From a virus (taxonomy: Duplodnaviria > Heunggongvirae > Uroviricota > Caudoviricetes), in the IMG/VR virus record IMGVR_UViG_3300046002_003930, positions 1-64,000 of that record: 64,000 nucleotides of DNA; one strand, written 5' to 3'. Shown here piece by piece: positions 11,281 through 41,690 of the stretch. Positions within the stretch are counted from its first letter, which is position 1. Every line of letters starts with the position of its first letter. The notes under the pieces are model-generated. The model saw only the letters and a list, made by a program, of their open reading frames with translations. It did not search any database and was not told where the DNA came from. The position numbers and the translations under genes were made by a program.

Positions 11281-11912
11281 TTATTGCAATCGGAGATATT
11301 CACGGACGCTTTGACAAGCTCCAAGAACTACTCGCACTTCTTCCCGAAGAAGGCGAGCTGGTGTTTCTTGGCGACTATGTCGATCGCGGGCCACAATCAG
11401 CTGAAGTAGTCGCGCTTCTGCGCGAAACTGCACACATCTGCCTGTTAGGCAATCATGAAGAACTCATGATTGACGCGATTCTACATGGCCAAACGTATAT
11501 GTGGCATATCAATGGCGGTCTAGAAACCATTCAATCGTACAAAAACTTGTACGGTGAGGATAAAGCCTGGATGATGATGGAATCGGACGCTGAATGGATG
11601 CAGACTCTTCCATGCTCTTACACTACGGATACGCATATCTTTGTTCACGCTGGACTTAACCCCCGTAGGGAAGTTCAGACGCGTGAAGATATGATCTGGA
11701 TTAGGGATTTGTTTCTGCGCTCAGATAAAGACTTTGGGCGTCACGTTGTACATGGACACACTCACTCCCATGAAACGAAGAAGTATCATGACGTAGAGCT
11801 TCTTGCTAATCGCACGAATCTAGATACTGCAGCATTTCATACTGGCATTCTTAGTGCCGCTATAATCGACGGCGACACTACGATTGTTGTTCAAACTGAG
11901 GCTGATGAATGA
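11277..11912 (+). CDS. Ser/Thr protein phosphatase (calcineurin-like metallophosphoesterase, lambda-PPase type)
   Basis: IGDIHG, GDYVDRG and GNHE motifs in canonical order. Confidence 0.75.
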   Translation: MIIAIGDIHGRFDKLQELLALLPEEGELVFLGDYVDRGPQSAEVVALLRETAHICLLGNHEELMIDAILHGQTYMWHINGGLETIQSYKNLYGEDKAWMMMESDAEWMQTLPCSYTTDTHIFVHAGLNPRREVQTREDMIWIRDLFLRSDKDFGRHVVHGHTHSHETKKYHDVELLANRTNLDTAAFHTGILSAAIIDGDTTIVVQTEADE

Positions 11913-20872: not shown

Positions 20873-21718
20873 TTGAAACAACGCAGCAACCCACTTTCTT
20901 GGATTACAGTAGACGACGCAGAACTCTCGGTTGATAAGTTCCCGGATGGTTCGTTCCGATTTACTATCAGTAACATCAATACCGTCTATTCTAGCATTGT
21001 TGGGCCTAGATTTAATGTAACACTTAAAAGCACCTTGCCGGAAGCGCTACATGCCTGTTTCCAAGTGTGTAGTGCACTGCTTGATAGCTTTAATACTTGC
21101 TATATTGCTCTTACAGTTCAAACCTTCCCAGACCAACGTGCTGATCGCTCAGAAAAGCCCGGTATGGCTATTCCGGCAATCGCTACATGCACATTTCTGG
21201 CTGCTATGCCCGTAGATGAAATCGTTATTTTCGATATTCACAATAAGTCTGTTCTGGAAGCACTTAAAATTGGCTGCAAATATAACGAAATTAAAGTCCG
21301 CCATGTGGAGCCGCTTGATTGTTTAATTGAGGCTTTAAAGCTTGATGATCTTGACCCTGCAACATCAATCGACTATGTTGTAGCAGTTGATAAAGGTGCG
21401 GTTCATCGTGCTGAAACGGTTGCAGAGTACTATGGCGCTGAAGTCATTTACTGCGATAAAAAGCGTGTTGATGGTAAAATTATCGGGCACGAAATTGTAG
21501 CTCAACCAGACGGGCCTATGGCCGGAAAAAACATCTGGGTTGTGGATGACCTGTGCGACGGTGGTGCTACCTTTATTAGTGTTGCCAAGTTGTTGCGCGA
21601 ACATTACAACTTTCACGATCTAAATCTTTACGTAACTCATGGACTGTTCTCCAAAGGCAAGGAAGAACTGTTCCAACACTATACCACTATCCTTGCCCTT
21701 TTCGATTATGGAGCCTAA
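20873..21718 (+). CDS. ribose-phosphate pyrophosphokinase-like / phosphoribosyltransferase-domain protein
   Basis: Promoter-in-hairpin GCCCTTGACTTTTGCCGGTCAAGGGCCTATACT upstream; PRPP-binding motif VVDDLCDGGAT. Confidence 0.6.
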   Translation: MKQRSNPLSWITVDDAELSVDKFPDGSFRFTISNINTVYSSIVGPRFNVTLKSTLPEALHACFQVCSALLDSFNTCYIALTVQTFPDQRADRSEKPGMAIPAIATCTFLAAMPVDEIVIFDIHNKSVLEALKIGCKYNEIKVRHVEPLDCLIEALKLDDLDPATSIDYVVAVDKGAVHRAETVAEYYGAEVIYCDKKRVDGKIIGHEIVAQPDGPMAGKNIWVVDDLCDGGATFISVAKLLREHYNFHDLNLYVTHGLFSKGKEELFQHYTTILALFDYGA

Positions 21719-23216
21719 CTTGAACTATTCTGTCCCCGCTATTTTCGCTACCGATGCTTACAAACTGAGCCATTCGGAAATGTACCCTGAGGGTATGGAG
21801 CTGCTGTTCTCCACTTGGGTTCCTCGCTCGGACCGCCTTGCTAGGACGACTTCGCGTCAACTCGACGGCGATAACTCTGTCGTGTTCTTTGGCATCACGC
21901 AAACCATGAATAAGATGGAAAGCATCTTTGGTGAGTGGTTTGACCGCGACACTGAAGAAGTTGTGGATGAATACATCGACTTTATCAAGCTGTTCCTTAA
22001 AGTTACGCCAAATGCGCTGCAAGTTGAACGCATTCGTGACCTGCATGAACTTGGTTATCTGCCGATTAAAGTCTTGTATCTTCCGGAAGGCACAGTCACC
22101 AAAACCGGCGTCTGCCAAGCTGTAATTTTCAATACTCTGCCAGAGTTCGCGTGGGTTACTAACTATCTGGAAACTCTCTTCTCCACTCTGCAGTGGAATG
22201 CGCAAACCGTCGCGTCTATCGCACGGAACTACCGCAAGCTGTGTGACGAGTTTGCTGAACTCACTTGCGAAAACAACCTGCACGTTGACTGGCAGTGCCA
22301 CGACTTCTCTATGCGCGGTCTTTCCTCGCTAGAGACTTCGTCGACTGCTCAGCTGGGCCACCTGCTGTATTTCAACGGTACGGACACGCTGCCGACACTG
22401 TTCGAAGGTCAGAAGCTGTATGAAGATTTCGATATCGCCACCTTTGGCTCGGTACCAGCTTCGGAACACAGCGTTATGTGTGCGCACGGTGAAATGTCGG
22501 AAACGGATACTTTCCGTCACATCATGAATGCATTCCCCGTGGGCATTGCTTCTATCGTGTCTGATACGTGGGATTTCTGGAAAGTTCTGACGGTAACTCT
22601 GCCAGAACTCAAAGACGAAATCATGCAGCGCGATGGCAAGATTGTTATTCGTCCGGACAGTGGAGACCCGGTTGACATCATCTGCGGTGACGCAAATGCT
22701 GAGTGGGGCTCTCCTGCTTCGCAGGGCGCAATCCAACTTCTGTGGAATGTGTTTGGCGGCACTGTGAACGCCAAGGGCTACAAAGTTCTTGACCAACACA
22801 TTGGCCTGATCTATGGTGACTCGATCACTCTTGATCGTGCTAAGCGCATCTTTGAACGCCTTGCCGCGAATGGCTTTGCTTCGTCAAACGTTGTTCTTGG
22901 TGTTGGTTCGTTCACGTATCAATGCAACACGCGTGACACTTATGGCTTCGCCATGAAAGCCACTGGTGCCATTGTTAACGGTGAAGAACGCGCACTGTTC
23001 AAAGACCCGGTCACTGATGACGGCACTAAGACGTCCTTCAAGGGCTTCCTTAGCACTCGTTATGATGAAGTGCGCGACGAGTACTACACTGTTGATCGTC
23101 TGACTTTCGACGAAGCCGTGTTTGACCCGGAAAGCGCGTTCATTGAGCACGACTTCGAGTTTGTCAGCAATACTGCAAACTCATGGGAAGAGGTGCGCTG
23201 GCTTGCACGCCAGTAA
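21708..23216 (+). CDS. nadV: nicotinamide phosphoribosyltransferase (NadV/NAMPT-like)
   Basis: About 500 aa; IVIRPDSGDPVDII matches the NAMPT RPDSGDP signature; start overlaps the PRPP-synthetase stop. Confidence 0.6.
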   Translation: MEPNLNYSVPAIFATDAYKLSHSEMYPEGMELLFSTWVPRSDRLARTTSRQLDGDNSVVFFGITQTMNKMESIFGEWFDRDTEEVVDEYIDFIKLFLKVTPNALQVERIRDLHELGYLPIKVLYLPEGTVTKTGVCQAVIFNTLPEFAWVTNYLETLFSTLQWNAQTVASIARNYRKLCDEFAELTCENNLHVDWQCHDFSMRGLSSLETSSTAQLGHLLYFNGTDTLPTLFEGQKLYEDFDIATFGSVPASEHSVMCAHGEMSETDTFRHIMNAFPVGIASIVSDTWDFWKVLTVTLPELKDEIMQRDGKIVIRPDSGDPVDIICGDANAEWGSPASQGAIQLLWNVFGGTVNAKGYKVLDQHIGLIYGDSITLDRAKRIFERLAANGFASSNVVLGVGSFTYQCNTRDTYGFAMKATGAIVNGEERALFKDPVTDDGTKTSFKGFLSTRYDEVRDEYYTVDRLTFDEAVFDPESAFIEHDFEFVSNTANSWEEVRWLARQ

Positions 23217-23724: not shown

Positions 23725-24005
23725 TGGAGTTTATGAAAGCTAAACGCCCTCCTCCACCACAGACGGTGGAGGAGGTTTTGGCGTGGTGGGAAGACCGCGC
23801 GTTTGATATGCCAGATTGGTATTGGGAGCCACCAAATTGATATTTCTATTTTTCTTTTCACTATTTGCCGCTATTTGGAACTATTCTTTATGGGCGGCGT
23901 ATAGTCAGTCGAATGATTATTATTATAACCAACAGAAAAATGGCTGGTGGACTATATTCTACGCTTGTTTGATGTTGTATTGTGCTTTTAAATTGGATTT
24001 TTAAT

Positions 24006-24599
24006 ATGACTACCTCTTGGGTCGTAGCCGACCCACATTTTGGCCATCTAGGCGTGTGCAAATTTCTGCACCCCAATGGCACTGACCCCTTGCGACCTTG
24101 GGATACTCCCGAGGAAATGGACGAAGCTTTAGTTGAGAACTGGAACGAAGTTGTGCGTCCGGCTGACCGCGTTAACCTGCTTGGTGACGTGGTGATTAAC
24201 CGCCGCTGCCTAGTAACTCTGGGCAGGTTGAATGGGCGTATTCGTCTGGTTAAAGGCAACCACGACATTTTCAAGCTTGCTGATTACCTTCCGTATGTAG
24301 ACGACATTGCTGCTTATCATGTGACCAAAGGCCCACAGGGCGGCAAAGTTATCATGAGTCATATTCCAATTCATCCAGAGTCTCTGGGACGTTTTGGAGT
24401 AAATATTCATGGCCACCTTCATGCCCATGTTGTAACAAAAACAACACAGCGCAAGTCTGAACTGGAAGGTTGGACAGAAACAGTACCAGATCTACGGTAT
24501 GTTTGCGTCTCTGTAGAGCAGACAAACTGGAGACCAATCACGCTTGAAGAAGCAATGTCAAGAGCAGAGCCAACAGATGAGAGTGCATATTCTCACTAG
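24006..24599 (+). CDS. calcineurin-like metallophosphoesterase
   Basis: VVADPHFGH, GDVV and GNHD motifs; start at internal ATG 24006. Confidence 0.6.
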   Translation: MTTSWVVADPHFGHLGVCKFLHPNGTDPLRPWDTPEEMDEALVENWNEVVRPADRVNLLGDVVINRRCLVTLGRLNGRIRLVKGNHDIFKLADYLPYVDDIAAYHVTKGPQGGKVIMSHIPIHPESLGRFGVNIHGHLHAHVVTKTTQRKSELEGWTETVPDLRYVCVSVEQTNWRPITLEEAMSRAEPTDESAYSH

Positions 24600-24664
24600 T
24601 AGCTTTGAAAATAGTACTTGACATTTGAGTCGAAAGTTGCTATTATGTTTTATAAAGGATTATT

Positions 24665-25783: not shown

Positions 25784-25993
25784 ATGACCATACTTGCGTT
25801 TAAACCGCGACCAAAACCAGCCGTAATTGAACTTCCACCAACCAATCATGTCCCGCCTAGCATAACTACAATGGTGGCTAAAATCACACAGTGGGCAGCT
25901 GATATGGGTGTAGATGTAGAAACTACAGACTTTAAATACGAAACCGCTACTATTATGACGGTTATGCAAGGAATGATACATAAAGTAAAATGA
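25784..25993 (+). CDS. hypothetical protein
   Basis: 69-aa ORF. Confidence 0.4.
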   Translation: MTILAFKPRPKPAVIELPPTNHVPPSITTMVAKITQWAADMGVDVETTDFKYETATIMTVMQGMIHKVK

Positions 25994-26355
25994 TTGAACT
26001 TTTTGAAAAAACCGCATCTGACGAATACAAACATTTCGATGCTTTTACCTTGCGGCTTGACGAATGCAACCCAAATATTGCCACATTGCTAGGAGCAGGC
26101 ATCGGCCTTTCCGGTGAAGTTGGTGAATTTAATGAAATTCTCAAGAAACACGTATTTCAAGGTAAGGACTTCGATGAAGTCCATGCAAAGAAAGAGCTTG
26201 GAGACATTCTCTGGTATTTTCTAGCAGCTTGTTATGCGCTAGATACGACTCCCGAAGAAATCTACACGATTGTCTCGGATAAACTCCACGCCAGGTATAG
26301 TACTGGCAAATTTACCATCGCCGAAAGCGAAAACAGAAAAGAAGACGACGTATGA
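25990..26355 (+). CDS. MazG-like nucleotide pyrophosphohydrolase
   Basis: GEVGEFNEILKKH...KKELGDILWYFLAACYAL, the EExxE/D-GD pattern of the MazG family. Confidence 0.55.
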   Translation: MIELFEKTASDEYKHFDAFTLRLDECNPNIATLLGAGIGLSGEVGEFNEILKKHVFQGKDFDEVHAKKELGDILWYFLAACYALDTTPEEIYTIVSDKLHARYSTGKFTIAESENRKEDDV

Positions 26356-26561
26356 GAGTAGAAGTTCGAAATGGCAATCTAGAGCGTGCCATGAAAGTGT
26401 TGAAGCGCAAGCTTGTTGATGACGGTATGTTCCGTGAACTCCAAGCACGTCAGGCCTATGAAAAGCCTAGCGATAAACGCAAACGTGAGCACACTAATGC
26501 AGTTCTAAGGCAGCGTAAAGCTGATAAAGAACGTACTGAACACATTCTACCCAACGTATAA
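26352..26561 (+). CDS. rpsU: 30S ribosomal protein S21 (bS21) homolog
   Basis: 69 aa; VEVRNGNLERAMKVLKRKLVDDGMFRELQARQAYEKPSDKRKRE aligns with the E. coli RpsU core (ALRRFKR...YEKPT.ERKR). Confidence 0.7.
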   Translation: MRVEVRNGNLERAMKVLKRKLVDDGMFRELQARQAYEKPSDKRKREHTNAVLRQRKADKERTEHILPNV

Positions 26562-26570
26562 GGAAAAACT

Positions 26571-26996
26571 ATGAATATTGCACTTGTTAAACACGACGGT
26601 ACGGCTCTTAATATGCCTGCTAAAAGCATCCAAGGTATTCTGCCTGTTGAACCAACCGAAGATGCGGCCGATCTAAACTCGGTTCTATTTTCCGGTTTCC
26701 GTGGCGGTGCCACTTTCTACCTTCAAGACTCTGCAAATGACGTCTTTGAGGCGATTAAGGCACAGTCAAAAGAAGTTGAGGGATGGGCACAGTTCTCTCA
26801 CATTATCGAAGGTCAGAACATCTATCTGAAAACTCCGCTGGTCGAAGGCTACGACGAAGTGAAGACCGCCGATGATATGTTTTATCGCGTTTGGGTCAAC
26901 AACGGAACCGGACTAGAGACTATGGAGACTTGTAAGCATACCCCAGAAAATCTAGAAGCATTGACTGCAGCTATTGCCGCGAAAGGTGTCGTTTAA
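26571..26996 (+). CDS. hypothetical protein
   Basis: RBS AAGGAAAAAC then ATG. Confidence 0.5.
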   Translation: MNIALVKHDGTALNMPAKSIQGILPVEPTEDAADLNSVLFSGFRGGATFYLQDSANDVFEAIKAQSKEVEGWAQFSHIIEGQNIYLKTPLVEGYDEVKTADDMFYRVWVNNGTGLETMETCKHTPENLEALTAAIAAKGVV

Positions 26997-27133
26997 TGTT
27001 CCATAAGCGAAAAGATAAGGGCTGTGAAGCTAAAATCATGGCTGTTGTAGGTGAGCGGGTTCTTATTGAATCCCGCTGGCCTAAAAATGGTCGGAATATC
27101 CTCTTCGTATCAAAAGATTATTTCCAGGAGCGT

Positions 27134-27338
27134 TATGGAATCGCCGCTTGACCCTAAGGTCGCCCATCAGATTAAGATGGCAGCAAAAGAAATGCTGCGA
27201 GCTCGACGCTATGAAACGGAGTATAATCCGATTTTGTATATTCCAGCAAATCTGAGCGCAAACCATCCAGATAGTGGTATGTCAATGGCAGACCACGAAA
27301 AGGAAAAAGAAGCAAGGAAAACCCAAAAAAGTTCTTGA
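27134..27338 (+). CDS. hypothetical protein
   Basis: RBS CAGGAGCG then ATG 27134; stop TGA lies inside the -35 TTGACT of the next promoter. Confidence 0.4.
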
Positions 27339-27363
27339 CTTTTTGGGCAGATCTTGCTATTAT
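27335..27363 (+). promoter_or_regulatory. T5-type promoter (TTGACT-17-TATTAT) driving the tmRNA locus
   Basis: AAAAAAGTTCTTGACTTTTTGGGCAGATCTTGCTATTATAAGAG. Confidence 0.65.
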
Positions 27364-27369
27364 AAGAGA

Positions 27370-27760
27370 TAGTCGTAGACGACTGATAAAGGCGTAAAAG
27401 ACGCGAGTTCGACTCTCGCCGCCTCCACCATAAGTCCATCCTAGAGCAGTTCGCGACCTTGCAGGGACAAGATAGCTCGAAAAGATGAAGTCCTGGCTCC
27501 TGCAAGAGTCGAAGCATATCTCCCTGTGGTAAGGGACGGATTCGTTTGGGGCGACGTTCGCTGGCATGGGCCGGTGTAGTGTAAGTATCTGGGTGGCTTT
27601 ATGATGGGGGCGACATGGCATTCGATTTTACGAGAAATAAACAGTAAGAGACTAGTGACTGGCAAAGTGCCATTTTAAATGCAAACGATAATGTTGCGTT
27701 TGAAGATTTCCGCGTAGCGGCTTAATCTTCTTGGGTCCGCGGGTACCTCGAAACAGAAAC
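27370..27760 (+). ncRNA. ssrA: circularly permuted (two-piece-type) tmRNA (ssrA). Acceptor piece about 27370-27430 ends in T-arm/acceptor/CCA; coding piece starts GGGGGCG at 27606; tag ORF 27681-27725 encodes ANDNVAFEDFRVAA-stop
   Basis: T-arm GCGAG-TTCGACT-CTCGC then CGCCTCC-A-CCA (27403-27430). Downstream GGGGGCGACAUGGCAUUCGAUUUUACG resembles the tmRNA 5' end GGGGCUG...GGAUUCGAC. P1 pairing GGGGGCG/CGCCUCC and P2 pairing UUUUACG(27626-32)/CGUAAAA(27393-99). Tag reading frame GCA AAC GAT AAT ... GTA GCG GCT TAA. Confidence 0.7.
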
Positions 27761-27783
27761 CCGTACTTAATTTTAGAGGAAAT

Positions 27784-27936
27784 ATGAAATACTCAATCGG
27801 TTACAGAAACGCCAAAGGGCACTTAGTTTGCGAACTTTTCCCTGACTGGCCCTCGACATTCAAGCGTCTTGAAGGGCTTGATCATTTAAGTAAGACGGTC
27901 TTCGAAATCGTCCAAGGAGAAGATGAACCTATTAGC
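27784..27936 (+). CDS. hypothetical small protein
   Basis: RBS AGAGGAAAT then ATG; 50 aa; stop overlaps start of the spanin gene. Confidence 0.4.
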
Positions 27937-28462
27937 TAAAGCAGCTGAATTTAGAACTCAACTTATTATCGGCGGCATAGCTTTAACAGCTGTTGCCGTC
28001 GCTTTTGCTGCGACCTATAATATAGCCTATAATAAAGGCTTGAATGTCTCTGAAGTAGAGATTGCAGAATATCAAGGCAAAGTTGAAAAACTCAGTAATA
28101 GGCTTAAAGAGGCTCAAGGTCGAGTTACAACGCGTATTCAAACGCAGTATCTTGATCGTGTTGTAGAACGCGAACGCATTGTTTATCGTAATCGTGATGT
28201 AGTTGTTACTCAAGTCCCTGAGCAGTATATTTTGTCTCAAGGATGGGTAGACGCTCACGATGCTAGTGTACGTAATACTGTATTAGAACCAGAAGTTGCT
28301 GCGAACGCATTCCCATCTGGATACACAGATCGTGATGTTCTAGAAGTAATTACTCGCAATTATGGTCAAGTTTGCCTTGCAAATGCTGATCAACTAACCG
28401 CCCTGCAATCATGGGTTACAGAACAGAGGAAAGTAAATGAAGAAGCTATTGCTAATCGCTAG
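27923..28462 (+). CDS. i-spanin (Rz-like; N-terminal TM plus coiled coil)
   Basis: N-terminal TM IIGGIALTAVAVAFAA followed by coiled-coil-like periplasmic region; o-spanin gene overlaps its 3' end. Confidence 0.55.
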   Translation: MNLLAKAAEFRTQLIIGGIALTAVAVAFAATYNIAYNKGLNVSEVEIAEYQGKVEKLSNRLKEAQGRVTTRIQTQYLDRVVERERIVYRNRDVVVTQVPEQYILSQGWVDAHDASVRNTVLEPEVAANAFPSGYTDRDVLEVITRNYGQVCLANADQLTALQSWVTEQRKVNEEAIANR

Positions 28463-28583
28463 TTTGTTACTTGTATCGGCGTGCTGCCCTACAGTAATGA
28501 CTCCAGAACCACAGACTTGGCCACCGGCACCAGCCGAACTAATGCGCCCCGCGCAAACTCTAACTCCGGTGCAGCCTCAATGA
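28437..28583 (+). CDS. o-spanin (Rz1-like proline-rich lipoprotein), overlapping +1 frame
   Basis: MKKLLLIASLLLVSACC lipobox then Pro-rich PTVMTPEPQTWPPAPAELMRP; absent from ORF track (under 60 aa). Confidence 0.55.
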   Translation: MKKLLLIASLLLVSACCPTVMTPEPQTWPPAPAELMRPAQTLTPVQPQ

Positions 28584-29020: not shown

Positions 29021-29485
29021 ATGAAACGAATATTAATTGGGTTAATCGCCCTAAGTTTAAGTAGTACCACCGCGCTTGCTGCGCCACGAATCGTTGAAGC
29101 AGTAAGCACGCCGCAGTACATACAGAATATAAGTGCTAATGTTAGGGAGACCGTGTGTCTCTCACTAAATGTATACCACGAGGCACGTGGCTCTACGCGA
29201 CAAGACCAGATTGGCGTCGCATGGGTTACTAAAAATCGAGCGGCGCGTACCGGCCGTTCATATTGCCGTACTATTTGGGAGCCAGGACAATTTTCTTGGA
29301 CCCCACGATCGGCTTCCAGCTTAATGCCTCGCGAAATGGCGGCGTGGCATAGAGCGGTTCACATCTCTAGTCAAGTAATGGCAGGCGAGATCGCGGACCC
29401 CACTGGAGGCGCACGAAACTTCAGAGCATCACGTATGGGTGGCGGTAGAGGATACCGCGTTATTGGAGCCCACGCGTACTGGTAA
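29021..29485 (+). CDS. secreted cell-wall hydrolase (SleB/Hydrolase_2 family), candidate endolysin
   Basis: Signal peptide MKRILIGLIALSLSSTTALAA; LNVYHEARGSTRQDQIGVAWVTKNRAA matches the SleB-type hydrolase motif. Confidence 0.55.
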   Translation: MKRILIGLIALSLSSTTALAAPRIVEAVSTPQYIQNISANVRETVCLSLNVYHEARGSTRQDQIGVAWVTKNRAARTGRSYCRTIWEPGQFSWTPRSASSLMPREMAAWHRAVHISSQVMAGEIADPTGGARNFRASRMGGGRGYRVIGAHAYW

Positions 29486-32595: not shown

Positions 32596-32670
32596 GCCCA
32601 AATAGCTCAGCGGAAGAGCGCCTCCTTTACACGGAGGATGTCGGGGGTTCGATCCCCTCTTTGGGTACCA
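32596..32670 (+). tRNA. tRNA-Val (anticodon TAC), CCA encoded
   Basis: Acceptor GCCCAAA/TTTGGGT, D-arm GCTCAGCGGAAGAGC, anticodon loop TTTACAC, T-arm GGGGG-TTCGATC-CCCTC; preceded by promoter 32500-32530 and a 12-bp hairpin. Confidence 0.75.
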
Positions 32671-32674
32671 TTTT

Positions 32675-32749
32675 AGTCCTGTAGCTCAACGGAAGAGCGC
32701 CACATTGACATTGTGGAGGTCGCCGGTTCGACACCTGCCAGGACTACCA
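32675..32749 (+). tRNA. tRNA-Val (anticodon GAC)
   Basis: Acceptor AGTCCTG/CAGGACT, anticodon stem CCACA/TGTGG loop TTGACAT, CCA encoded. Confidence 0.65.
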
Positions 32750-32750
32750 T

Positions 32751-32824
32751 GCTTCCTTAGCTAAGTGGTATAGCAGGCGACTGATAATCGCCAGTCACAA
32801 GTTCGATTCTTGTAGGAAGTACCA
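32751..32824 (+). tRNA. tRNA-Ile (anticodon GAT)
   Basis: Acceptor GCTTCCT/AGGAAGT, anticodon stem GGCGA/TCGCC loop CTGATAA, T-arm ACAAG-TTCGATT-CTTGT. Confidence 0.75.
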
Positions 32825-32961
32825 ATAATTCGCCCGTAGTGCATGCAACTACCGGCTAAGAACACGGATGACCTCTTCGGCAGACGAGGGGTAGTGCAAG
32901 TGGGCGGTCGCCCCGCACTTCTATTTCGGGGTAAAAGTCCTCATAGTCTGTCGACAATTTT

Positions 32962-33046
32962 TGCAGGATAGCCTAATGGTAAGGCAACGGTTTTTGGTGC
33001 CGTCAGCGAAAGCTAACTCTAGGTTCGAGTCCTAGTCCTGCATCCA
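32962..33046 (+). tRNA. tRNA with long variable arm, anticodon loop TTTTGGT (TTG, Gln-like but class-II shape)
   Basis: Acceptor TGCAGGA/TCCTGCA, T-arm CTAGG-TTCGAGT-CCTAG, CCA encoded; identity uncertain. Confidence 0.5.
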
Positions 33047-33047
33047 C

Positions 33048-33135
33048 GGAAGGTAGCGCTCAGGTGAGCAAACTGGTCTTGAAAACCAGGCCAAGGTGAT
33101 GAGTCTTGAGGTTTCGATTACTTTACCTTCCTCCA
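33048..33135 (+). tRNA. tRNA-Ser (anticodon TGA), class II
   Basis: Acceptor GGAAGGT/ACCTTCC, anticodon stem CTGGT/ACCAG loop CTTGAAA, long variable arm, CCA encoded. Confidence 0.65.
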
Positions 33136-33139
33136 TTTC

Positions 33140-33211
33140 CGTTAGTGCGCTGGGACGCAGCTGAGGCTCATATCTTCGGCGTGGGTGGTTCAATTCCACC
33201 ACTAACGACCA
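33140..33211 (+). tRNA. tRNA-Met or Ile2 (anticodon CAT)
   Basis: Acceptor CGTTAGT/ACTAACG, loop CTCATAT, T-arm GGTGG-TTCAATT-CCACC, CCA encoded. Confidence 0.6.
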
Positions 33212-33275
33212 TCTTAAAAAGTTCTTGACTTTTTGCCTCAAACATCGTATTCTATACTTATAGAAGGAGATTAAA

Positions 33276-33719
33276 ATGCAAAAAGGCCAAATGATTGGTA
33301 AAATGATTGTTCTTGCTACGAACGCCCACGCGGGGCAGTTCGACAAAGGCGGTCGTCCCTATATTCTACACCCTCTGTCGGTAATGCACATTCTGAACTC
33401 CGATGACGAAGAGTTGCAGTGCATGGCAGTTGGGCACGACATTCTAGAAGACACTGATACTACTATCGAGCAGCTTGTTGAAGCTGGCATGACAAAGCGT
33501 GTCATCGAAGGTATTCTGGCAGTCACTAAAATGCCGGGCGAATCTAAAGACACATACAAAGCTAAGGTTATGGCAAGTCAAGACGCGATGCGCGTCAAAA
33601 AGGCCGATCTTAAGCACAACAGCGACTTTAGTCGTCTGAAGGGTGTGAAAGAAAAAGACTTCGCTAGAATGGCCGCCTATATGCTGTTCTATCAAGAGAT
33701 TGAAGATCGCTTAAATTAA
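33276..33719 (+). CDS. HD-domain (p)ppGpp hydrolase (SpoT/Mesh1-like small alarmone hydrolase)
   Basis: Promoter 33225-33253; NAHAGQFDKGGRPYILHP and AVGHDILEDT match the Rel/SpoT HD hydrolase motifs. Confidence 0.6.
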   Translation: MQKGQMIGKMIVLATNAHAGQFDKGGRPYILHPLSVMHILNSDDEELQCMAVGHDILEDTDTTIEQLVEAGMTKRVIEGILAVTKMPGESKDTYKAKVMASQDAMRVKKADLKHNSDFSRLKGVKEKDFARMAAYMLFYQEIEDRLN

Positions 33720-33757
33720 TCCTTGACTTTTATCTCATTTCAGAGTATTATATAAAA

Positions 33758-33958
33758 ATGAAAGATTCTCTGGAAAGACTGTATCAAGACCGAGACGAGG
33801 CAGAACAACTTGTGTTCGATCTCGAAGAAGAAATCCGTAACCACGAAGAAGAGTCCGATGAATGGTGCTCTCTCTTCCATGAGTTGACGGAAGCAGAAAA
33901 CAACGTAAGCTACATTCAGGCATGGATTACCAGCCATGAAGGTGGCTACGAAGAATAA
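33758..33958 (+). CDS. hypothetical acidic protein
   Basis: Promoter CCTTGACTTTTATCTCATTTCAGAGTATTATATAAAA upstream. Confidence 0.45.
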   Translation: MKDSLERLYQDRDEAEQLVFDLEEEIRNHEEESDEWCSLFHELTEAENNVSYIQAWITSHEGGYEE

Positions 33959-33959
33959 T

Positions 33960-34036
33960 ACGCCACTAGCACAATTGGTAGTTGCGGGGGACTCTTAATC
34001 CCTAGGTTCCGAGTTCGACCCTCGGGTGGCGTACCA
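33960..34036 (+). tRNA. tRNA-Lys (anticodon CTT)
   Basis: Acceptor ACGCCAC/GTGGCGT, anticodon stem GGGGA/TCCCT loop CTCTTAA, T-arm CCGAG-TTCGACC-CTCGG, CCA encoded. Confidence 0.65.
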
Positions 34037-34038
34037 TT

Positions 34039-34656
34039 ATGATTGGCAATTTATATTTAATATCTAACTCTATAAATAATAAAGTTTACGTAGGTAAAAC
34101 TTACGAAGCTTTAGACAAACGATTTTCAGAGCACAAGAGAGAAAGTAAAAAACAGTTAACTAGACCCTTATACAAAGCTATGAATAAGCATGGTGCTGAT
34201 AATTTTAATATAGAATTAATAGGTACATTTATTCAGGGCGAATTAGAAGAATATGAGCAGGTCGCTATTGCGGAGTTTGATTCTTTTACTAACGGTTATA
34301 ATGCTACACTGGGTGGTGATGGAAAACGTTATCTAACTATTACAGATGCAGAAATTATAAATACTTATACTGTATTGAAAAACGCAGATGCTACTGCTAA
34401 GAAGTTAAAGATTAGTGAAGATTCGGTATTTAAGGTTTTAAAAGCCAATAATATTAAATCTCTATTTACTAATCCAGGAATATCTGTATTCTTTGTGGAA
34501 GAAAACACACGATTTGATAGAATATCAGATTGTGCTAGATATTTAATAGAAAATAACTATACTAATATAAGTTCAATCCCATCATTAGTTTATTCGATTA
34601 AACGGGTTATGGATAAACAAAGAAAAGCATACAAAAAGCTTCATTTTACCTATTAA
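34039..34656 (+). CDS. GIY-YIG homing endonuclease
   Basis: N-terminal NLYLISNS...KVYVGKT (GIY...YIG) followed by RFSEHK; inserted between two tRNA genes. Confidence 0.75.
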   Translation: MIGNLYLISNSINNKVYVGKTYEALDKRFSEHKRESKKQLTRPLYKAMNKHGADNFNIELIGTFIQGELEEYEQVAIAEFDSFTNGYNATLGGDGKRYLTITDAEIINTYTVLKNADATAKKLKISEDSVFKVLKANNIKSLFTNPGISVFFVEENTRFDRISDCARYLIENNYTNISSIPSLVYSIKRVMDKQRKAYKKLHFTY

Positions 34657-34665
34657 ATACATTAT

Positions 34666-34750
34666 CGACGCGTTGGACAATTGGTGGTCCAGTGGGCTTT
34701 TAATCCACCTCCGTAAGGACTTGTCGGTTCGAACCCGACCGCGTTGACCA
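34666..34750 (+). tRNA. tRNA-Lys (anticodon TTT) with unusually long variable region
   Basis: Acceptor CGACGCG/CGCGTTG, D-arm GGAC-AATTGGTG-GTCC, loop CTTTTAA, T-arm GTCGG-TTCGAAC-CCGAC, CCA encoded. Confidence 0.6.
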
Positions 34751-34791
34751 AACTAACGTGCCTAAATTAACATTAACAGCAGAAAAGCAAA

Positions 34792-35361
34792 ATGAACACC
34801 TCTAAACTTACCAACTTGATGTTTCAAAACATCAACAATGTTTCCTATGACCTGGCTACAGGTGCTACAGCAATTAAAACCGATTCCGGTCTAATTTCGC
34901 TGAGCAAAGATCACAATAGTCTGGAACAAAACCCTTTTGATTCCTTCGCTATGGAAATCCCTGCGTTTGCCATTCTGACCCCTATTAAAGATATTGCGGT
35001 AGGTGATCTAATCGTCTCTAACGGAAAGGCCGTCGGTTTCGTAGTTCTCGCTGAGGGCGATGATCTAGAAGTTCTTTCGGTTGATGGAAACCTTAACAGC
35101 CACCGTCCTCGTACTATTCAGTTCCTTGGACAAGCTGCTGGTGTGCAAGTTGTTAAGTCTCTGCTAAGCTTTGGCAATAACAGCGAAGGTCCAAACGGTC
35201 TTTTCAGCAACCCTCTCATGCTTATGATGATGATGGGCGATGGTAAAAAAGACCTGAGCAAAATGCTCCCTTTTCTACTCATGGGGAACTCCGGCGCGAG
35301 CTCGGGTATGAACCCCTTGATGCTTATGGCTATGATGGGCGATAAAAGCCCTTTTGCCTAA
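34792..35361 (+). CDS. hypothetical protein with Met-rich C-terminal repeats (NPLMLMMMMGDGK / NPLMLMAMMGDK)
   Basis: 189-aa ORF; RBS-like AAAAGCAAA then ATG. Confidence 0.5.
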   Translation: MNTSKLTNLMFQNINNVSYDLATGATAIKTDSGLISLSKDHNSLEQNPFDSFAMEIPAFAILTPIKDIAVGDLIVSNGKAVGFVVLAEGDDLEVLSVDGNLNSHRPRTIQFLGQAAGVQVVKSLLSFGNNSEGPNGLFSNPLMLMMMMGDGKKDLSKMLPFLLMGNSGASSGMNPLMLMAMMGDKSPFA

Positions 35362-35510
35362 CTGAGAGCGGGCCTAACGAACCCGCTCCAAGTGTTCTCC
35401 TCGGAGGCACAGCAGATACCCTAGATAAAAATCGTATTAGATCAACTGGACCCAGCTTCTCGTCGTGGGGTGGGTATTTAGGTGACCGTTCGATTTATCG
35501 CATCAAAGGT

Positions 35511-35801
35511 ATGCTATATCGTTCAGGCGAAGTACAGCGTCTTTTCAAAGATAAGTCTAGTGGAACTATTATTCTGCTAAAACGCGAAAAGGGGAATGCG
35601 CATGATGCTAATGCTATTGCGGTCTACTCAGCCCTAACCCCATCCGGGACTAAGACTTATGAGTGGACTAAAGTCGGCTATGTTGATAAAGAAATTGCCA
35701 GAGAAGAGTTCTATGGATTACCTCTAGATACGGTTCTTGAGTGTACAAAGTACGGCCAAGATACTTTCCAATTGAGTGGAAAAACTAGAGAGTACAAATA
35801 A
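35511..35801 (+). CDS. HIRAN-domain-like protein
   Basis: NAHDANAIAVY...KVGYVDKEIA resembles the HIRAN motif (NpyDpnAI.V...iGYv). Confidence 0.4.
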   Translation: MLYRSGEVQRLFKDKSSGTIILLKREKGNAHDANAIAVYSALTPSGTKTYEWTKVGYVDKEIAREEFYGLPLDTVLECTKYGQDTFQLSGKTREYK

Positions 35802-35847
35802 TATTGATGCTGTTAGGCGCATTTTATAAAGAAAGAAGGTGACTATT

Positions 35848-36015
35848 TTGACCACGTCGCCTAACAGCATCATCACTCCTTGTACATTGATTTGTAAGAT
35901 TGAAGACGGCTGTTGTGTTGGGTGTCTCCGCACCATACCAGAAATTGCTGGCTGGCGTAGAATGTCTGACGAAGAGCGCATCGCAATTATGACCGACTTG
36001 AAAAATAGGTCTTGA
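35848..36015 (+). CDS. small Cys-rich protein, DUF1289-like (TTG start)
   Basis: RBS AAGGTGA then TTG; SPCxxxCxxxxxxCCxGCxRTxxEIxxWxxMSxEER pattern; stop TGA inside next promoter -35. Confidence 0.4.
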   Translation: MTTSPNSIITPCTLICKIEDGCCVGCLRTIPEIAGWRRMSDEERIAIMTDLKNRS

Positions 36016-36097
36016 CTTTGGTGCCCAAATATCGTATTATATAATCTGTGGTTCGGGACTGTCGCCCGATTAAATGAGCTTCAGCTCTAGCCATTTT

Positions 36098-36176
36098 CCG
36101 AGTGTAGCTCAGTCTGGTAGAGCGCTCCGTTTGGGACGGAGAGGTTTCAGAGGTTCGAATCCTCTCACTCGGACCA
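36098..36176 (+). tRNA. tRNA-Pro (anticodon TGG)
   Basis: Promoter 36006-36040 upstream; acceptor CCGAGTG/CACTCGG, D-arm GCTC-AGTCTGGTA-GAGC, anticodon stem CTCCG/CGGAG loop TTTGGGA, T-arm AGAGG-TTCGAAT-CCTCT, CCA. Confidence 0.7.
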
Positions 36177-36485
36177 ATTACGCGGTGATAGAATAAATTC
36201 TGTCTATTAATGTGGATGAAAAATCCCACAGCCGCATCAAGTGCGACGGAGTAACCGACACTGCGATCAGGGTCCGCTAGTAACGGGTAGCCTCGCATTC
36301 GCCTCCGCCCTCACCAGCCTGATTTAACTAATCAGTAAGGTCTCAAGAAGAGGGGAGCTGCTCAACGGTGCAGCAGGCGAGAGGGTCACGCCCCTCAACC
36401 GTTCCAGTTTTATGTGGTGCTTGCACATCCGGTGGCAAGTTGAATGAGGCGCAGTCTCAGCCACTCCAATTTACGAAAGAAGACG

Positions 36486-36797
36486 ATGCATTCCTACTTT
36501 TTTGTTCGACAAGATATTAGTCCAGAACAACAGACTGTACAACTACAGCATGTTTCCTTGGAACTAGGCAATTGCCTGACACGTCGAGAAACATTAGGAC
36601 TCAACTTCGTTACATGTGGTGTTCCCGATCTAGAAGCTCTTGAAAACATTGAAAGCTATTTAGTAGCAAAAGAGTTAGAGTATGTTCTCTATCGGGACTC
36701 CCACTTTTACAACGAGATTACAGCAATCGCTGTATTTCCAATTAACGCGGAAGACCGCGAGCATTTCCGTTTCGGAAAATTATTGAAATTTAAATGA
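36486..36797 (+). CDS. hypothetical protein
   Basis: RBS GAAAGAAGACG then ATG 36486; 103 aa. Confidence 0.45.
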   Translation: MHSYFFVRQDISPEQQTVQLQHVSLELGNCLTRRETLGLNFVTCGVPDLEALENIESYLVAKELEYVLYRDSHFYNEITAIAVFPINAEDREHFRFGKLLKFK

Positions 36798-36991
36798 AAC
36801 TATTAGCCATCCTCTTTACTCTACTTGCCGGAAATCCTTCGGAAGGTGTAAACACGCCAACTGATAGACTATGGGCAAAGAGTGAAGGTCATGCTACAGT
36901 TTTATCGGCCAACGAGGTTAAGCTATTTGCTTATACGTGGCCGCATGAAGACGATTCAAAATCAGATTAACTGTTAGTTAATCCTACTTTG

Positions 36992-37025
36992 AGCCGTCTT
37001 CCTGAAAAGGAGGGCGGCTTTTTTA
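36992..37025 (+). terminator. rho-independent terminator
   Basis: AGCCGTCTTCCTGAAAAGGAGGGCGGCT followed by TTTTTTAG. Confidence 0.6.
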
Positions 37026-37046
37026 GTTAAGTAAATTATTAATCAT

Positions 37047-37128
37047 ACCCCGTTGGCGGAACGGTAGACGCGCTGCGCTTAGGACGCAGTTCTTAGGAGT
37101 GAGAGTTCGAATCTCTTGCGGGGTACCA
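37047..37128 (+). tRNA. tRNA-Leu (anticodon TAG), class II
   Basis: Acceptor ACCCCGT/GCGGGGT, anticodon stem CTGCG/CGCAG loop CTTAGGA, long variable arm, T-arm GAGAG-TTCGAAT-CTCTT, CCA. Confidence 0.65.
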
Positions 37129-37191
37129 TTAATAATTTAATTCTTGACATAAATCAATATTTTTGGTATACTCTAAAAATGGAGTTACCAT

Positions 37192-37632
37192 ATGTCTTAT
37201 GAAAAACGCTTTCCCGATTGGGAACAACAAATAATTAACGCTGCAAATAGCACAGGTTCTGCTAGTGCTGCGGCCGCATTTTTAGGTATTAAATACGATA
37301 CCTATAGAAAATACGCACTCAGATACAACTGTTTAAAGACTAATCAGTCCGGAAAAGGAATAAGTAAAAAGTCTGCAAACAGCTACGCATTAGAAGATAT
37401 TTTGGCCGGAGAGCATCCGCAATATCCTAGTGCAAAACTAAGGGTGCGCTTGATTAAAGAAGATATATTTCCTGCAAAATGCAATAAATGTGGATTAGAA
37501 GAATGGTTAAATAAGCCCATCCCTCTAGAACTAGAGCATAAAGATGGGGATCATCATAATAATCTTTTAGAGAATTTAGAGCTATTATGTCCTAATTGTC
37601 ATGCTCAGACTGAGACTTATTGTAGAAAATAA
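37192..37632 (+). CDS. HNH homing endonuclease
   Basis: Promoter AATTCTTGACATAAATCAATATTTTTGGTATACTC upstream; CNKCG...LELEHKDGDHHNN...LLCPNCH HNH motif. Confidence 0.7.
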   Translation: MSYEKRFPDWEQQIINAANSTGSASAAAAFLGIKYDTYRKYALRYNCLKTNQSGKGISKKSANSYALEDILAGEHPQYPSAKLRVRLIKEDIFPAKCNKCGLEEWLNKPIPLELEHKDGDHHNNLLENLELLCPNCHAQTETYCRK

Positions 37633-37633
37633 T

Positions 37634-37709
37634 GCCCGTCTAGCCCAGCGGCAGAGGCACCAGACTTAAAATCTGTACAGGCTCGGTTCGAATCCGAGGA
37701 CGGGTACCA
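37634..37709 (+). tRNA. tRNA with anticodon TAA (Leu-type anticodon) but class-I short variable loop
   Basis: Acceptor GCCCGTC/GACGGGT, loop CTTAAAA, T-arm CTCGG-TTCGAAT-CCGAG, discriminator A, CCA encoded. Confidence 0.55.
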
Positions 37710-37879
37710 ATTCCAAGGGATACAATGTATAAAACAAGTTACACATATACTCTTAGAGATAAAATAGTCTCAGAAAGTTCGTCAGTGCCAATGGGTACGT
37801 TAGAGGACTTTAATAAGAAAGTTAACGCTATTCTTGATTATTATGGGCATAAGCCAAATTTCAAGTTTAGTGCAAGTTT

Positions 37880-37963
37880 TGGGTAGGTAAAGCCGATGGT
37901 TTCGGCACGGGGCCTGTAAAGCCTTTCCGCAAGGGAGTGATTCGATTTCGCACCTGCTCACCA
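37880..37963 (+). other. tRNA-like structured element (GTA anticodon-like loop, non-canonical T-arm, ends ...CTCACCA)
   Basis: Hairpins GCCGA-TGGTT-TCGGC and GGGGC-CTGTAAA-GCCTT; no consistent acceptor stem found. Confidence 0.3.
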
Positions 37964-37964
37964 T

Positions 37965-38035
37965 GCTAGAGTCCGGAGGACGGTTGCTGGGTTGTGTCCC
38001 CGGTGAATAGGTTTCGACTACCTACTCTAGTTCCA
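37965..38035 (+). tRNA. tRNA-like gene, possibly His (anticodon GTG), reduced D-arm
   Basis: Acceptor GCTAGAG/CTCTAGT, anticodon stem CTGGG/CCCGG loop TTGTGTC, T-arm TAGGT-TTCGACT-ACCTA, CCA encoded. Confidence 0.4.
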
Positions 38036-38039
38036 TAAT

Positions 38040-38232
38040 TTAGGATAGTTCAGCATACCAAATGTTTGCAATACAGAACCCGAAAGGGGCTATCCTGTTT
38101 AGTTTTAGAATGGTCCAGCAACTCAATTACTGTGATTGGTTCACAATTTGTCTTAGAAACAAACCTAGCGGGTTCAATTCCCGCGTAAAAACAACCATTC
38201 TGTTTTAAGGAGATACATATGCTTAAGGGATA
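38040..38232 (+). other. two further tRNA-like/structured elements (closed stem AGGATAG...CTATCCT around a GAAA-tetraloop hairpin; then a roughly 90-nt element with T-arm GCGGG-TTCAATT-CCCGC)
   Basis: Acceptor-like 7-bp closures and a canonical T-arm but no clean cloverleaf. Confidence 0.3.
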
Positions 38233-38267
38233 TATCATGTTATAGAGCACCAAGGAGGGCTCATAAC

Positions 38268-38537
38268 ATGAAGCAACAATATAAGATCAACACACCGTCA
38301 TGGTACCTCTACAATGGGGTATATGAGGAGTGGAAATCTAAAGGAATGTATGTCCATCGTTATCGCTGGATGCGCAACCCTAGAACACACCTTAATCGTA
38401 AGCGCCTCGCAGCGCACCCAGAGTTTACTCGCGGTAAGCAGCGAAAACTTCCTAGCAACTGGGATGACATGAACCTTTCGTTCAACCATTCCAACTGCTG
38501 GAAACGCTTCACTAAGAAGCGAAAACAACATTCTTAG
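38268..38537 (+). CDS. hypothetical basic protein
   Basis: RBS CAAGGAGGG then ATG; 89 aa, rich in K/R/W. Confidence 0.45.
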   Translation: MKQQYKINTPSWYLYNGVYEEWKSKGMYVHRYRWMRNPRTHLNRKRLAAHPEFTRGKQRKLPSNWDDMNLSFNHSNCWKRFTKKRKQHS

Positions 38538-38578
38538 GCTCCAGACCGCAACTCAATTAGCATTGTAAGCTCGTTGTT

Positions 38579-38635
38579 ATTGGTTCGATTCCAATATCCT
38601 CCACCACTGGGGAGGATTAGCTCAATTGGTAGAGC
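38579..38635 (+). ncRNA. anticodon-less, circularly closed tRNA-like module (T-arm - acceptor stem closed by 8-nt loop - D-arm); Y-RNA (YrlA-type) effector-domain candidate
   Basis: ATTGG-TTCGATT-CCAAT then ATCCTCC-ACCACTGG-GGAGGAT then TA then GCTC-AATTGGTA-GAGC. Acceptor strands perfectly complementary but in 3'-then-5' order; no anticodon arm. Confidence 0.45.
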
Positions 38636-38657
38636 ACGAAAAACAGGAACCTGTATT

Positions 38658-38690
38658 AAAACTCTTGACTTTGAAGCTGAAAGCTTCTAT
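38658..38690 (+). promoter_or_regulatory. T5-type promoter (TTGACT-17-TATACT) upstream of the Ro60-like gene, with a roughly 270-nt leader
   Basis: AAAACTCTTGACTTTGAAGCTGAAAGCTTCTATACTATTT. Confidence 0.55.
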
Positions 38691-38965
38691 ACTATTTAAA
38701 GACTTAGGGATAAGTACTGCACTACATTTATCGCAGGGTAATGCCTGTATTAAGCAAAGTTACTTAAATGTAACCCCACAGGATTTCAGCCGCTGTATAA
38801 ATACGGTTGACAGTAGATCGAGCTGTGTAAAACGATCGACACTATCCCGTACTAATTTAGAATGAAGACTGCAACTCAAAACTAACGGGGTTACCCGTTT
38901 CCAGGCTTGGGTACGCCACGAAAAGGCCCACAACATTCATTCTGTTCATAAAAAGGAAAACTACA

Positions 38966-40441: not shown

Positions 40442-40444
40442 TCA

Positions 40445-40540
40445 AAGATAGCGGAGTCCGATACCTTCCGAGGGTGTCCGGCTCCGCCGTCTCTCGGAAG
40501 TGATACGGTGGCTATAAAGTTATGCCACCTGTCACAATTT
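40445..40540 (+). other. multi-hairpin structured region immediately 3' of the Ro60-like gene
   Basis: GCGGAGTCCG...CGGCTCCGC, TTCCGAG...CTCGGAA, GGTGGC-TATAAAGTTAT-GCCACC. Confidence 0.35.
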
Positions 40541-40630
40541 TGCTCTGCCGAGCTGAACTAGGTGGACGGGCCTGACTGTTAATCAGGATACGCGAGGTTC
40601 GAATCCTCGCGGCAGAGCAAAATTGTGACT
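40531..40630 (+). tRNA. tRNA-Asn (anticodon GTT; body 40544-40617) embedded in a perfect 20-bp extended stem
   Basis: 5' GTCACAATTTTGCTCTGCCG ... 3' CGGCAGAGCAAAATTGTGAC are exact reverse complements; inner cloverleaf has anticodon stem CCTGA/TCAGG loop CTGTTAA and T-arm CGAGG-TTCGAAT-CCTCG; no encoded CCA. Confidence 0.65.
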
Positions 40631-40634
40631 TCAT

Positions 40635-40712
40635 GCACCCGTCGTCTAAATGGAATAGGATACCACACTTTCAATGTGGCAGATGCCGGTTCAAGTCCGG
40701 TCGGGTGTTCCA
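40635..40712 (+). tRNA. tRNA-Glu (anticodon TTC)
   Basis: Acceptor GCACCCG/CGGGTGT, anticodon stem CCACA/TGTGG loop CTTTCAA, T-arm GCCGG-TTCAAGT-CCGGT, CCA. Confidence 0.65.
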
Positions 40713-40717
40713 ACTTT

Positions 40718-41624: not shown

Positions 41625-41690
41625 CAAAATTTAGTTCTTGACTTTGTCCTAAAAGCGTGGCATAATGTTTATCTTAAGTCGGGAAAGCAA

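Follow-up and report, generated by a model that had tools for sequence, protein, structure and literature searches.

A bS21 homologue encoded near a permuted tmRNA gene in a distant T5-like phage

The bS21 gene and its phage lineage

We analysed 64,000 nucleotides of DNA from a virus of the class Caudoviricetes (IMG/VR record IMGVR_UViG_3300046002_003930, positions 1 to 64,000; this whole stretch is called the window) and focused on a short open reading frame (ORF) at 26352..26561 on the plus strand. Profile searches confirmed this ORF, on the basis of its sequence, as a homologue of the ribosomal protein S21 of bacteria (bS21) located on a phage genome. We consider it fairly probable that the gene encodes a functional, long-resident phage bS21 in a distant T5-like phage, and that its product substitutes for the host bS21 in the small ribosomal subunit (30S) of the host cell.

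The rpsU-like gene starts with ATG, ends with TAA and codes for a protein of 69 amino acids (MRVEVRNGNLERAMKVLKRKLVDDGMFRELQARQAYEKPSDKRKREHTNAVLRQRKADKERTEHILPNV). An earlier note on this DNA had proposed a phage-encoded bS21 and had asked for a hidden Markov model search. This search bore the proposal out, since Pfam Ribosomal_S21 (PF01165) was matched with 57.2 bits (E=1.3e-15, profile positions 2-55 of 55), which is well above the gathering score of 27, and the NCBIfam equivalog TIGR00030 (S21p) was matched with 56.7 bits at a cut-off of 28.95. Both scores are about twice as high as the curated cut-offs, which supports the bS21 identity. The ORF also matched PHROG 21469 ('ribosomal protein S21', E=1.8e-12) and 27 distinct chains of bS21 or of its mitoribosomal counterpart bS21m from solved ribosomes (E<=1e-3). 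When 22 phage and cellular S21 sequences were aligned, Y36-E-K-P-S40 and R45 were found to be invariant. With a pI of 10.46 and a net charge of +8, the 69-residue phage protein fits the class of small, strongly basic bS21 proteins. The AlphaFold2 (AF2) model, for which an alignment of the phage protein with cellular S21 proteins was used as input, reached a predicted local distance difference test score (pLDDT) of 80.7 and involves helices at residues 10-23, 26-34 and 39-65.

Phage genes in a T5-type arrangement border the gene on either side, and thus it is phage-encoded and not part of a cellular contig. Its homologues were likewise found on IMG/VR contigs and on phage-like contigs of 75-115 kb. 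Nearly all sizeable ORFs of the window are located on the plus strand. PHROG assignments yielded the gene order NAD-dependent ligase, DnaB-like helicase, primase, family-A DNA polymerase, second helicase and SbcD/SbcC, and this replication block is collinear with that of Tequintavirus IME178. The DNA polymerase shares 43-45% identity with those of cultured phages (25 best listed of 2,464 matching records). These 25 best-listed matches were phages of Enterobacteriaceae and Proteus, and IME178, which we inspected, belongs to the genus Tequintavirus (Demerecviridae). A megablast search with the region 24-30 kb against deposited phages gave no nucleotide-level matches. Gene order, polymerase matches and collinearity identify the window by its gene content as DNA of a distant T5-like phage, as the earlier note had assumed. 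ARAGORN detected 29 tRNA genes on the plus strand, which form a cluster at 32596..47030, and this cluster, a transfer-messenger RNA (tmRNA) gene and S21 constitute a translation-related gene set of the phage.

To characterize the selection acting on the S21 gene, the Nei-Gojobori ratio of nonsynonymous to synonymous divergence (dN/dS) was calculated in comparison with four relatives. Here, we obtained values of 0.071 (L001), 0.103 (L111), 0.123 (L022) and 0.124 (L023) at synonymous divergences (dS) of 0.8-2.4. It can be seen that the gene is under purifying selection in the viral lineage. Its G+C content (0.448) is that of the window (0.445) and not that of the nearest cellular rpsU loci (median 0.63). 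A recent capture of S21, which we considered as an alternative origin, was ruled out by composition, selection and the synteny described below.

When cellular genomes were searched (one genome per species, 185,579 species), almost all of the best 80 S21 matches came from Alphaproteobacteria, with identities of 41-58%. The orders represented were Hyphomicrobiales/Rhizobiales, Sphingomonadales, Rhodospirillales and Rhodobacterales. The earlier note had also asked for a phylogeny against cellular rpsU, and for this purpose a neighbour-joining tree was constructed from the 58-residue S21 core with 300 bootstrap replicates. In this tree, the phage S21 proteins form a clade of their own: the window's clade, which comprises 16 sequences, was monophyletic in 220 of the 300 replicates and its inner six sequences in 289 of 300. 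The cellular alphaproteobacterial S21 proteins were placed apart from the phage proteins. The alphaproteobacterial affinity of the cellular matches, taken together with the alpha-type tmRNA, suggests an alphaproteobacterial host and an old acquisition of the gene. Judging from these affinities, the host of the phage is most likely an alphaproteobacterium, and the affinity does not extend to a genus. One contig of a metagenome-assembled genome (MAG) labelled Calditrichaceae (L060, CAYWBI010000049.1) has a G+C content of 45% and carries an S21 that is 54% identical to the phage protein and falls outside the cellular alphaproteobacterial group in the tree. This may be a phage contig that was binned into a bacterial MAG.

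Detailed inspection of the alignment revealed 12 positions at which the phage clade and the cellular alphaproteobacterial S21 proteins are fixed for different residues. The clade-specific substitutions are concentrated in residues 1-31, which form the first two helices (10 of 31 positions as compared with 2 of the 35 later ones; Fisher p=0.009), and the long C-terminal helix is conserved. The median net charge is +9 for phage S21 versus +14 for the cellular alphaproteobacterial proteins, and the phage proteins lack the basic C-terminal tail.

Conserved position, tmRNA linkage and gene neighbourhood

A search of 5.8 billion proteins yielded 92 S21 homologues. The closest 14 clusters are 63-99% identical to the window's protein and all of them originate from metagenome contigs. 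The exact S21 protein was present on contigs from many samples, the longest of which comprises 102,867 bp. In L001, L106-L113, L022 and L023, the S21 gene occupies the same position and is preceded by a gene of the MazG/PRA-PH superfamily that overlaps its start, with the permuted tmRNA located 0.6-0.9 kb beyond S21. L001 shares about 90% protein identity with the window overall. For L022 (a 105-kb contig) and L023 (75 kb), the shared proteins are 30-79% identical to those of the window, most of them less than 60%, and with 72-74% identity S21 ranks near the top of this range.

A sister clade (P0015-P0056), which is represented by contigs of 98-115 kb, has genes for ThyX/ThyA, DenV, AdoMetDC, nicotinamide phosphoribosyltransferase (NAMPT) and metallophosphoesterase in common with the window. 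In this clade, S21 is located in a small inverted cassette after a dUTPase/DCD gene (L114, L116) and the 4-nt overlap between the two genes is kept. An endolysin gene follows directly 3' of S21, and the tmRNA gene is found 1.3-2.7 kb away on the opposite strand. In metagenomes, at least two uncultured clades of T5-like phages thus carry S21 as a fixed gene, and the proteins fall into about 56 clusters at 90% identity. Among 50,697 deposited phage records, we found 8 S21 matches and none of them was T5-like. The earlier statement that S21 is unusual in a T5-like genome therefore applies to cultured phages but not to metagenomes.

Relatives were also sought via the DenV-like neighbour, a gene that proved to be common in a far larger collection of aquatic T5-like contigs. 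Only the nine closest loci obtained in this way were informative, and most of the others were too short for an S21 call. The aquatic IMG/VR contigs L127-L197 have a compact gene order (DenV-like, w31459-like, ligase, helicase, primase, polymerase) in common with the window, which suggests a broad uncultured radiation of T5-like phages. In distant aquatic T5-like contigs, the occurrence of S21 is patchy (L158, L181, L187 and L190, 38-47% identity) and no tmRNA was detected there.

The tmRNA gene of the window (about 27331..27816, plus strand) is of the permuted, two-piece alpha type. It was detected by ARAGORN and by the Rfam models RF04321 (86.8 bits) and RF01849 (69.3 bits), and its tag peptide is ANDNVAFEDFRVAA; a possible resemblance to the tags of Caulobacterales was given no weight in judging the host. 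The gene begins 770 bp past the S21 stop codon, which agrees with the distance of about 0.8 kb given in the earlier note, and a promoter-like site of its own is located at 27335..27363. In clade 1, to which the window belongs, the permuted tmRNA lies downstream of S21 on the same strand at a distance of about 0.6-1.4 kb. When the two closest clades were considered together, a permuted tmRNA was present within 0.6-2.7 kb of S21 in 13 of 13 further tabulated loci, and the S21 association that holds up is the one with the phage tmRNA and the tRNA set. A blastn search with the tmRNA against deposited phages returned only one 35-nt match at chance level. In L023 (10817..11178), L118 (2939..3361) and L126 (2762..3136), ARAGORN failed to call the tmRNAs, which were then found with the Rfam covariance models, and for this reason negative ARAGORN results in L007-L013 and L127-L197 are no proof of absence. 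The phage tmRNA carries an extra segment of about 150 nt between its two pieces, and the length of the locus varies among close relatives. In L108, an ORF with an HNH domain (His_Me_b4a2) is found immediately 5' of a compact tmRNA (locus 4070..4862).

Directly upstream of S21 we found the MazG-like gene that the earlier note had described as a neighbour. This ORF (25990..26355, plus strand, 121 aa) encodes an all-alpha nucleoside triphosphate pyrophosphohydrolase of the MazG type, with 23.8 bits for Pfam MazG (cut-off 22) and a match to PHROG 229 at 1e-33. Its TGA stop codon overlaps the ATG of S21 (ATGA, 4-nt overlap), and a Shine-Dalgarno (SD) core of the type GGAG/AGGA was absent from the 30 nt before S21. 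The overlap of stop and start, together with the lack of an SD core at this site, makes translational coupling of S21 to the MazG-type gene likely. For the ORF starts of the window as a whole (crude longest-ORF starts), an SD core at positions -18..-5 was observed in about 50%, compared with a background of 13%. Further upstream, the intergenic gap before ORF 24665 contains a promoter-like site (24618..24646, plus strand; TTGACA-17-TATTAT with TG) with 11 of 12 matches to the sigma-70-type consensus. Five relatives, with S21 genes that show a synonymous divergence of 0.8-1.25, have this site without any change. We infer that it is the putative start of a transcription unit in which S21 would be the sixth or seventh gene.

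Downstream of S21, a 141-aa ORF without assigned function (26571..26996, plus strand) follows directly. It is variable among the relatives and absent from L022 and L023. The next ORF (26996..27151, plus strand, 51 aa) is conserved after S21 in every clade-1 relative, and its identity amounts to 98% in L001 and to 48-51% in L022 and L023, with the order kept. No family matches were obtained for this 51-aa product. The lysis genes are located 3' of the tmRNA gene and include an Rz-like spanin (27923..28462, plus strand) and a SleB-type (Hydrolase_2) endolysin (29021..29485, plus strand). A small ORF with a lipobox (LVSAC; 28437..28583, plus strand) overlaps the spanin gene. The genes for DenV-like protein, ThyX and AdoMetDC come after the lysis genes.

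Several additional features of the carrier genome were observed. Among the 29 tRNA genes, there are duplicate species for Val, Lys, Leu, Arg, Met, Thr, Ile, Ser and Gly, and small ORFs as well as a GIY-YIG homing-endonuclease-like gene (34039..34656) are interspersed in the cluster. The tRNA region also encodes a 491-aa protein (38966..40441, plus strand) with DUF2828, DUF7788 and VWA domains, which matches PHROG 850 ('RNA-binding protein') and may be a Ro/TROVE-like RNA-binding protein. A PRPP-synthetase-like gene (20873..21718, plus strand) adjoins the NAMPT gene (21639..23216, plus strand) and the two form an NAD+ salvage pair; in the relative L115, NAMPT and an NMNAT/NUDIX fusion are found in place of this pair. 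The left part of the window furthermore contains four plus-strand genes of the phosphatase type (8098..8667, 11277..11912, 418..1131 and 23982..24599). One of them is dual-specificity phosphatase-like, two code for calcineurin-like metallophosphoesterases and one for a PNKP-type HAD phosphatase.

Possible functions of the phage bS21

According to the reading we prefer, host RNA polymerase probably transcribes the S21 gene from the sigma-70-type promoter about 1.7 kb upstream, and the message is probably translated in coupling with the preceding MazG-type gene. The phage bS21 would then take the place of the host protein on the platform of the 30S subunit, beside the 3' end of the 16S rRNA with its anti-SD region. 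There it would keep initiation running once host gene expression falls, and it would possibly favour the SD-led mRNAs of the phage. The literature provides a frame for such a scenario. bS21 is exchangeable and needed for pairing between mRNA and 16S rRNA (PMC6375957), it has been placed against the anti-SD (PMC9723584) and, according to an excerpt of a further study, it contacts the 3' tail of the 16S rRNA (PMC9976891). For viral proteins, it was hypothesized that S21 redirects translation initiation (PMC6375957, PMC9723584). E. coli 70S ribosomes took up the bS21 of the pelagiphage HTVC008M, and purifying selection was found to act on viral bS21 genes (PMC6375957). For Francisella, an excerpt of the corresponding report describes that bS21 paralogues alter gene expression or the choice of mRNAs that get translated (PMC9578407). 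By analogy with these systems, incorporation of the phage S21 into host ribosomes is likely, and selectivity for phage mRNAs may be hypothesized. Since the phage genes are SD-led, a protein governing the access of SD to anti-SD would be relevant to them.

Several data have to be weighed against this interpretation. In the neighbour-joining tree, the cellular set was strictly monophyletic in 30 of 300 replicates, at the limited resolution offered by 58 columns; such poor monophyly is to be expected from the short length of the S21 protein and the presence of unlabelled metagenomic sequences in the set. Foldseek returned four PDB matches for the S21 model, all of which were mitoribosomal bS21m (template modelling scores 0.48-0.65) with weak E-values of 0.036-0.69, which is attributable to the tiny size of the protein. 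Promoter-like sites were no commoner in the region than in shuffled sequence. The lower net charge and the missing basic tail could weaken binding to rRNA. Finally, E. coli ribosomes into which the pelagiphage bS21 had been incorporated showed an activity of only about 5% when assayed in vitro (PMC6375957). Incorporation thus need not mean stimulation, and this low activity leaves room for an inhibitory role.

One alternative is that the phage copy merely supplies an exchangeable, only loosely attached protein after a T5-type shut-off of the host, in the manner of the tRNAs and the tmRNA of the phage and without any preference for phage mRNAs. Such a supply function would be in line with the finding that every family-invariant S21 residue is kept and that the gene travels with 29 tRNAs and a tmRNA, which resembles a general set for translation upkeep. 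It would also agree with the tendency of viruses to encode dynamic, exchangeable ribosomal proteins (PMC6375957). On the other hand, the phage proteins carry consistent clade-specific substitutions in the two N-terminal helices, their charge is below that of cellular alphaproteobacterial S21, and identity to every cellular S21 examined is 58% or less under strong purifying selection. Such divergence under strong constraint is suggestive of an optimum specific to the phage and less of a simple replacement part, and we regard supply without preference as possible but rather unlikely. The low in vitro activity of ribosomes with pelagiphage bS21 (PMC6375957), the reduced charge and the altered N-terminal helices would also be compatible with an inhibitor that blocks host translation, or with an extraribosomal RNA binder that counters defence, and non-ribosomal partners of bS21 are reported in an excerpt of PMC12054373. 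However, the phage needs the same ribosomes for its own SD-led genes, the low activity was measured in a heterologous E. coli system, and the neighbourhood contains no pointer to a defence-related partner. Thus, an inhibitory or extraribosomal function appears improbable.

Viral bS21 is thought to stem from repeated host-to-virus transfers (PMC6375957), and a recently captured host gene might persist as a neutral passenger without any role for the phage. This explanation is contradicted by the selection and synteny data. The dN/dS values are 0.07-0.12, and the position of the gene is kept across relatives with a protein identity of 40-75% and in a second clade. The G+C content is that of the phage rather than the 63% typical of the closest cellular loci, identity to cellular sequences reaches 58% at most, and the exact protein recurs on contigs from many samples. 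We therefore consider a neutral passenger hardly credible.

The earlier note had also placed a (p)ppGpp hydrolase gene of the HD type next to S21 and had proposed a module tuning host translation and the stringent response. When all ORFs of at least 100 aa between 19.4 and 32.5 kb were inspected, no HD domain was found. The neighbour that came into question (23982..24599, plus strand, 205 aa) was rejected as an HD hydrolase, since Pfam and PHROG identified it as a calcineurin-like metallophosphoesterase, and the assignment to the HD type probably goes back to a misreading of its GNHD motif. A RelA/SpoT-type gene does exist in the window (33276..33719, plus strand), and this is probably the HD gene that the earlier note had meant. 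It encodes a 147-aa HD_4 protein that consists of the hydrolase domain only and resembles small alarmone hydrolases (PF13328 29.3 bits, cut-off 27.2; TIGR00691 positions 4-89, E=6e-15; PHROG 990 at 3e-52). The protein could degrade (p)ppGpp or related alarmones, or it might undo the pyrophosphorylation that toxic alarmone synthetases introduce at tRNA 3' ends. Its location differs from the earlier description, since it is found 6.7 kb downstream of S21 within the tRNA cluster.

A single stringent-response unit, in which MazG and the HD hydrolase degrade (p)ppGpp while S21 and tmRNA retune translation, would fit the overlap of the MazG-type gene with the S21 start and the presence of a hydrolase-only HD_4 gene in the window. 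Against such a unit, the tmRNA, the spanin and endolysin genes, DenV, ThyX, AdoMetDC and several tRNA genes lie between S21 and the HD_4 gene, and none of the relatives' loci examined showed an HD gene beside S21. In the sister clade, a dUTPase/DCD gene occupies the MazG slot and is coupled to S21, so that the conserved partner is a house-cleaning pyrophosphatase. This points to nucleotide house-cleaning rather than to ppGpp hydrolysis, and nothing ties S21 to (p)ppGpp. The proposal of a stringent-response module was therefore abandoned as very improbable.

The pairing of S21 with tmRNA is kept although the local arrangement was rebuilt between the clades. On this basis, S21 and the permuted tmRNA might have been selected together as a pair, within a large radiation of uncultured T5-like phages that infect Alphaproteobacteria, so that host ribosomes would be refitted at both ends of the translation cycle. 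If this were true, the phage bS21 would make a 'phage-type' 30S subunit favouring phage leaders, and stalled ribosomes would be freed by the phage tmRNA once the host has been shut off. We offer this extension as a tentative idea that is rather unlikely.

Comparison with known systems and significance

bS21 genes have been described in 1,310 viral genomes or contigs, the majority of them aquatic and lytic (Mizuno et al. 2019; PMC6375957). The bS21 of the pelagiphage HTVC008M (PMC6375957) belongs to the same family as the window's protein, comes from a lytic-type phage of (probably) Alphaproteobacteria, is under purifying selection and is likewise closest to alphaproteobacterial and mitochondrial bS21. 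However, the two proteins share only 44% identity, and HTVC008M is a T4-like myovirus, whereas the window's gene is carried by a T5-like genome of the siphovirus type with a size of about 100 kb. In addition, the window's S21 belongs to a clade of its own and shows fixed synteny near a tmRNA gene.

Similarities were also found with the bS21 of Bacteroidetes phages from lakes (Chen et al. 2022; PMC9723584), which cluster apart from cellular sequences, diverge in the N-terminal helix that lies over the anti-SD but keep a conserved anchor helix at the C-terminus, and are proposed to be substituted into host ribosomes. The genomic context is different. In the Bacteroidetes phages, the gene is encoded by the reverse strand in the structural (late) module near the prohead protease and the major capsid protein, whereas in the window it is part of a T5-type non-structural block among nucleotide-metabolism, tmRNA and lysis genes. 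The mechanism discussed for the Bacteroidetes phages, in which an aromatic residue blocks the anti-SD of hosts that make no use of SD motifs, is not expected here, because the genes of our phage carry such motifs.

Cellular alphaproteobacterial rpsU genes, including paralogous copies, are the nearest by sequence and share family, length class and hallmark motif with the phage gene. They differ from it by an identity of at most 58%, by the 12 fixed differences and by a G+C content of about 63% as compared with 45% for the phage. The ...REG(L/I)IPGKK-type basic tail of the proteins from Hoeflea and Rhizobiaceae (P0064, P0067) is missing from phage S21. With Tequintavirus and other Demerecviridae (T5), the phage shares the collinear block of ligase, helicase, primase, DNA polymerase, helicase, SbcD and SbcC, the large tRNA cluster and the location of all genes of the replication region on one strand, and the related contigs are about 100-115 kb long. 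The differences include the polymerase identity of 43-45% and the fact that the deposited T5-like phages have neither S21 nor a similar tmRNA.

A literature search of titles and abstracts retrieved no paper on S21 in T5-like phages or on tmRNA in Demerecviridae. What is new here is the carrier lineage and the genomic context; viral bS21 itself is known, and the data do not introduce a new mechanism or principle. The finding widens the range of hosts and phages for which viral bS21, the commonest virus-encoded ribosomal protein, is known. To our knowledge, no study has yet demonstrated, in a native host, an effect of viral bS21 on translation in the course of an infection. Phages of the T5-like type are amenable to genetics, and in this lineage S21 is fixed, strongly constrained, probably coupled in translation to a pyrophosphatase gene and accompanied throughout by a tmRNA and a large number of tRNA genes. 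Should a host be isolated, these phages would offer a convenient system for asking whether a phage ribosomal protein makes specialised ribosomes.

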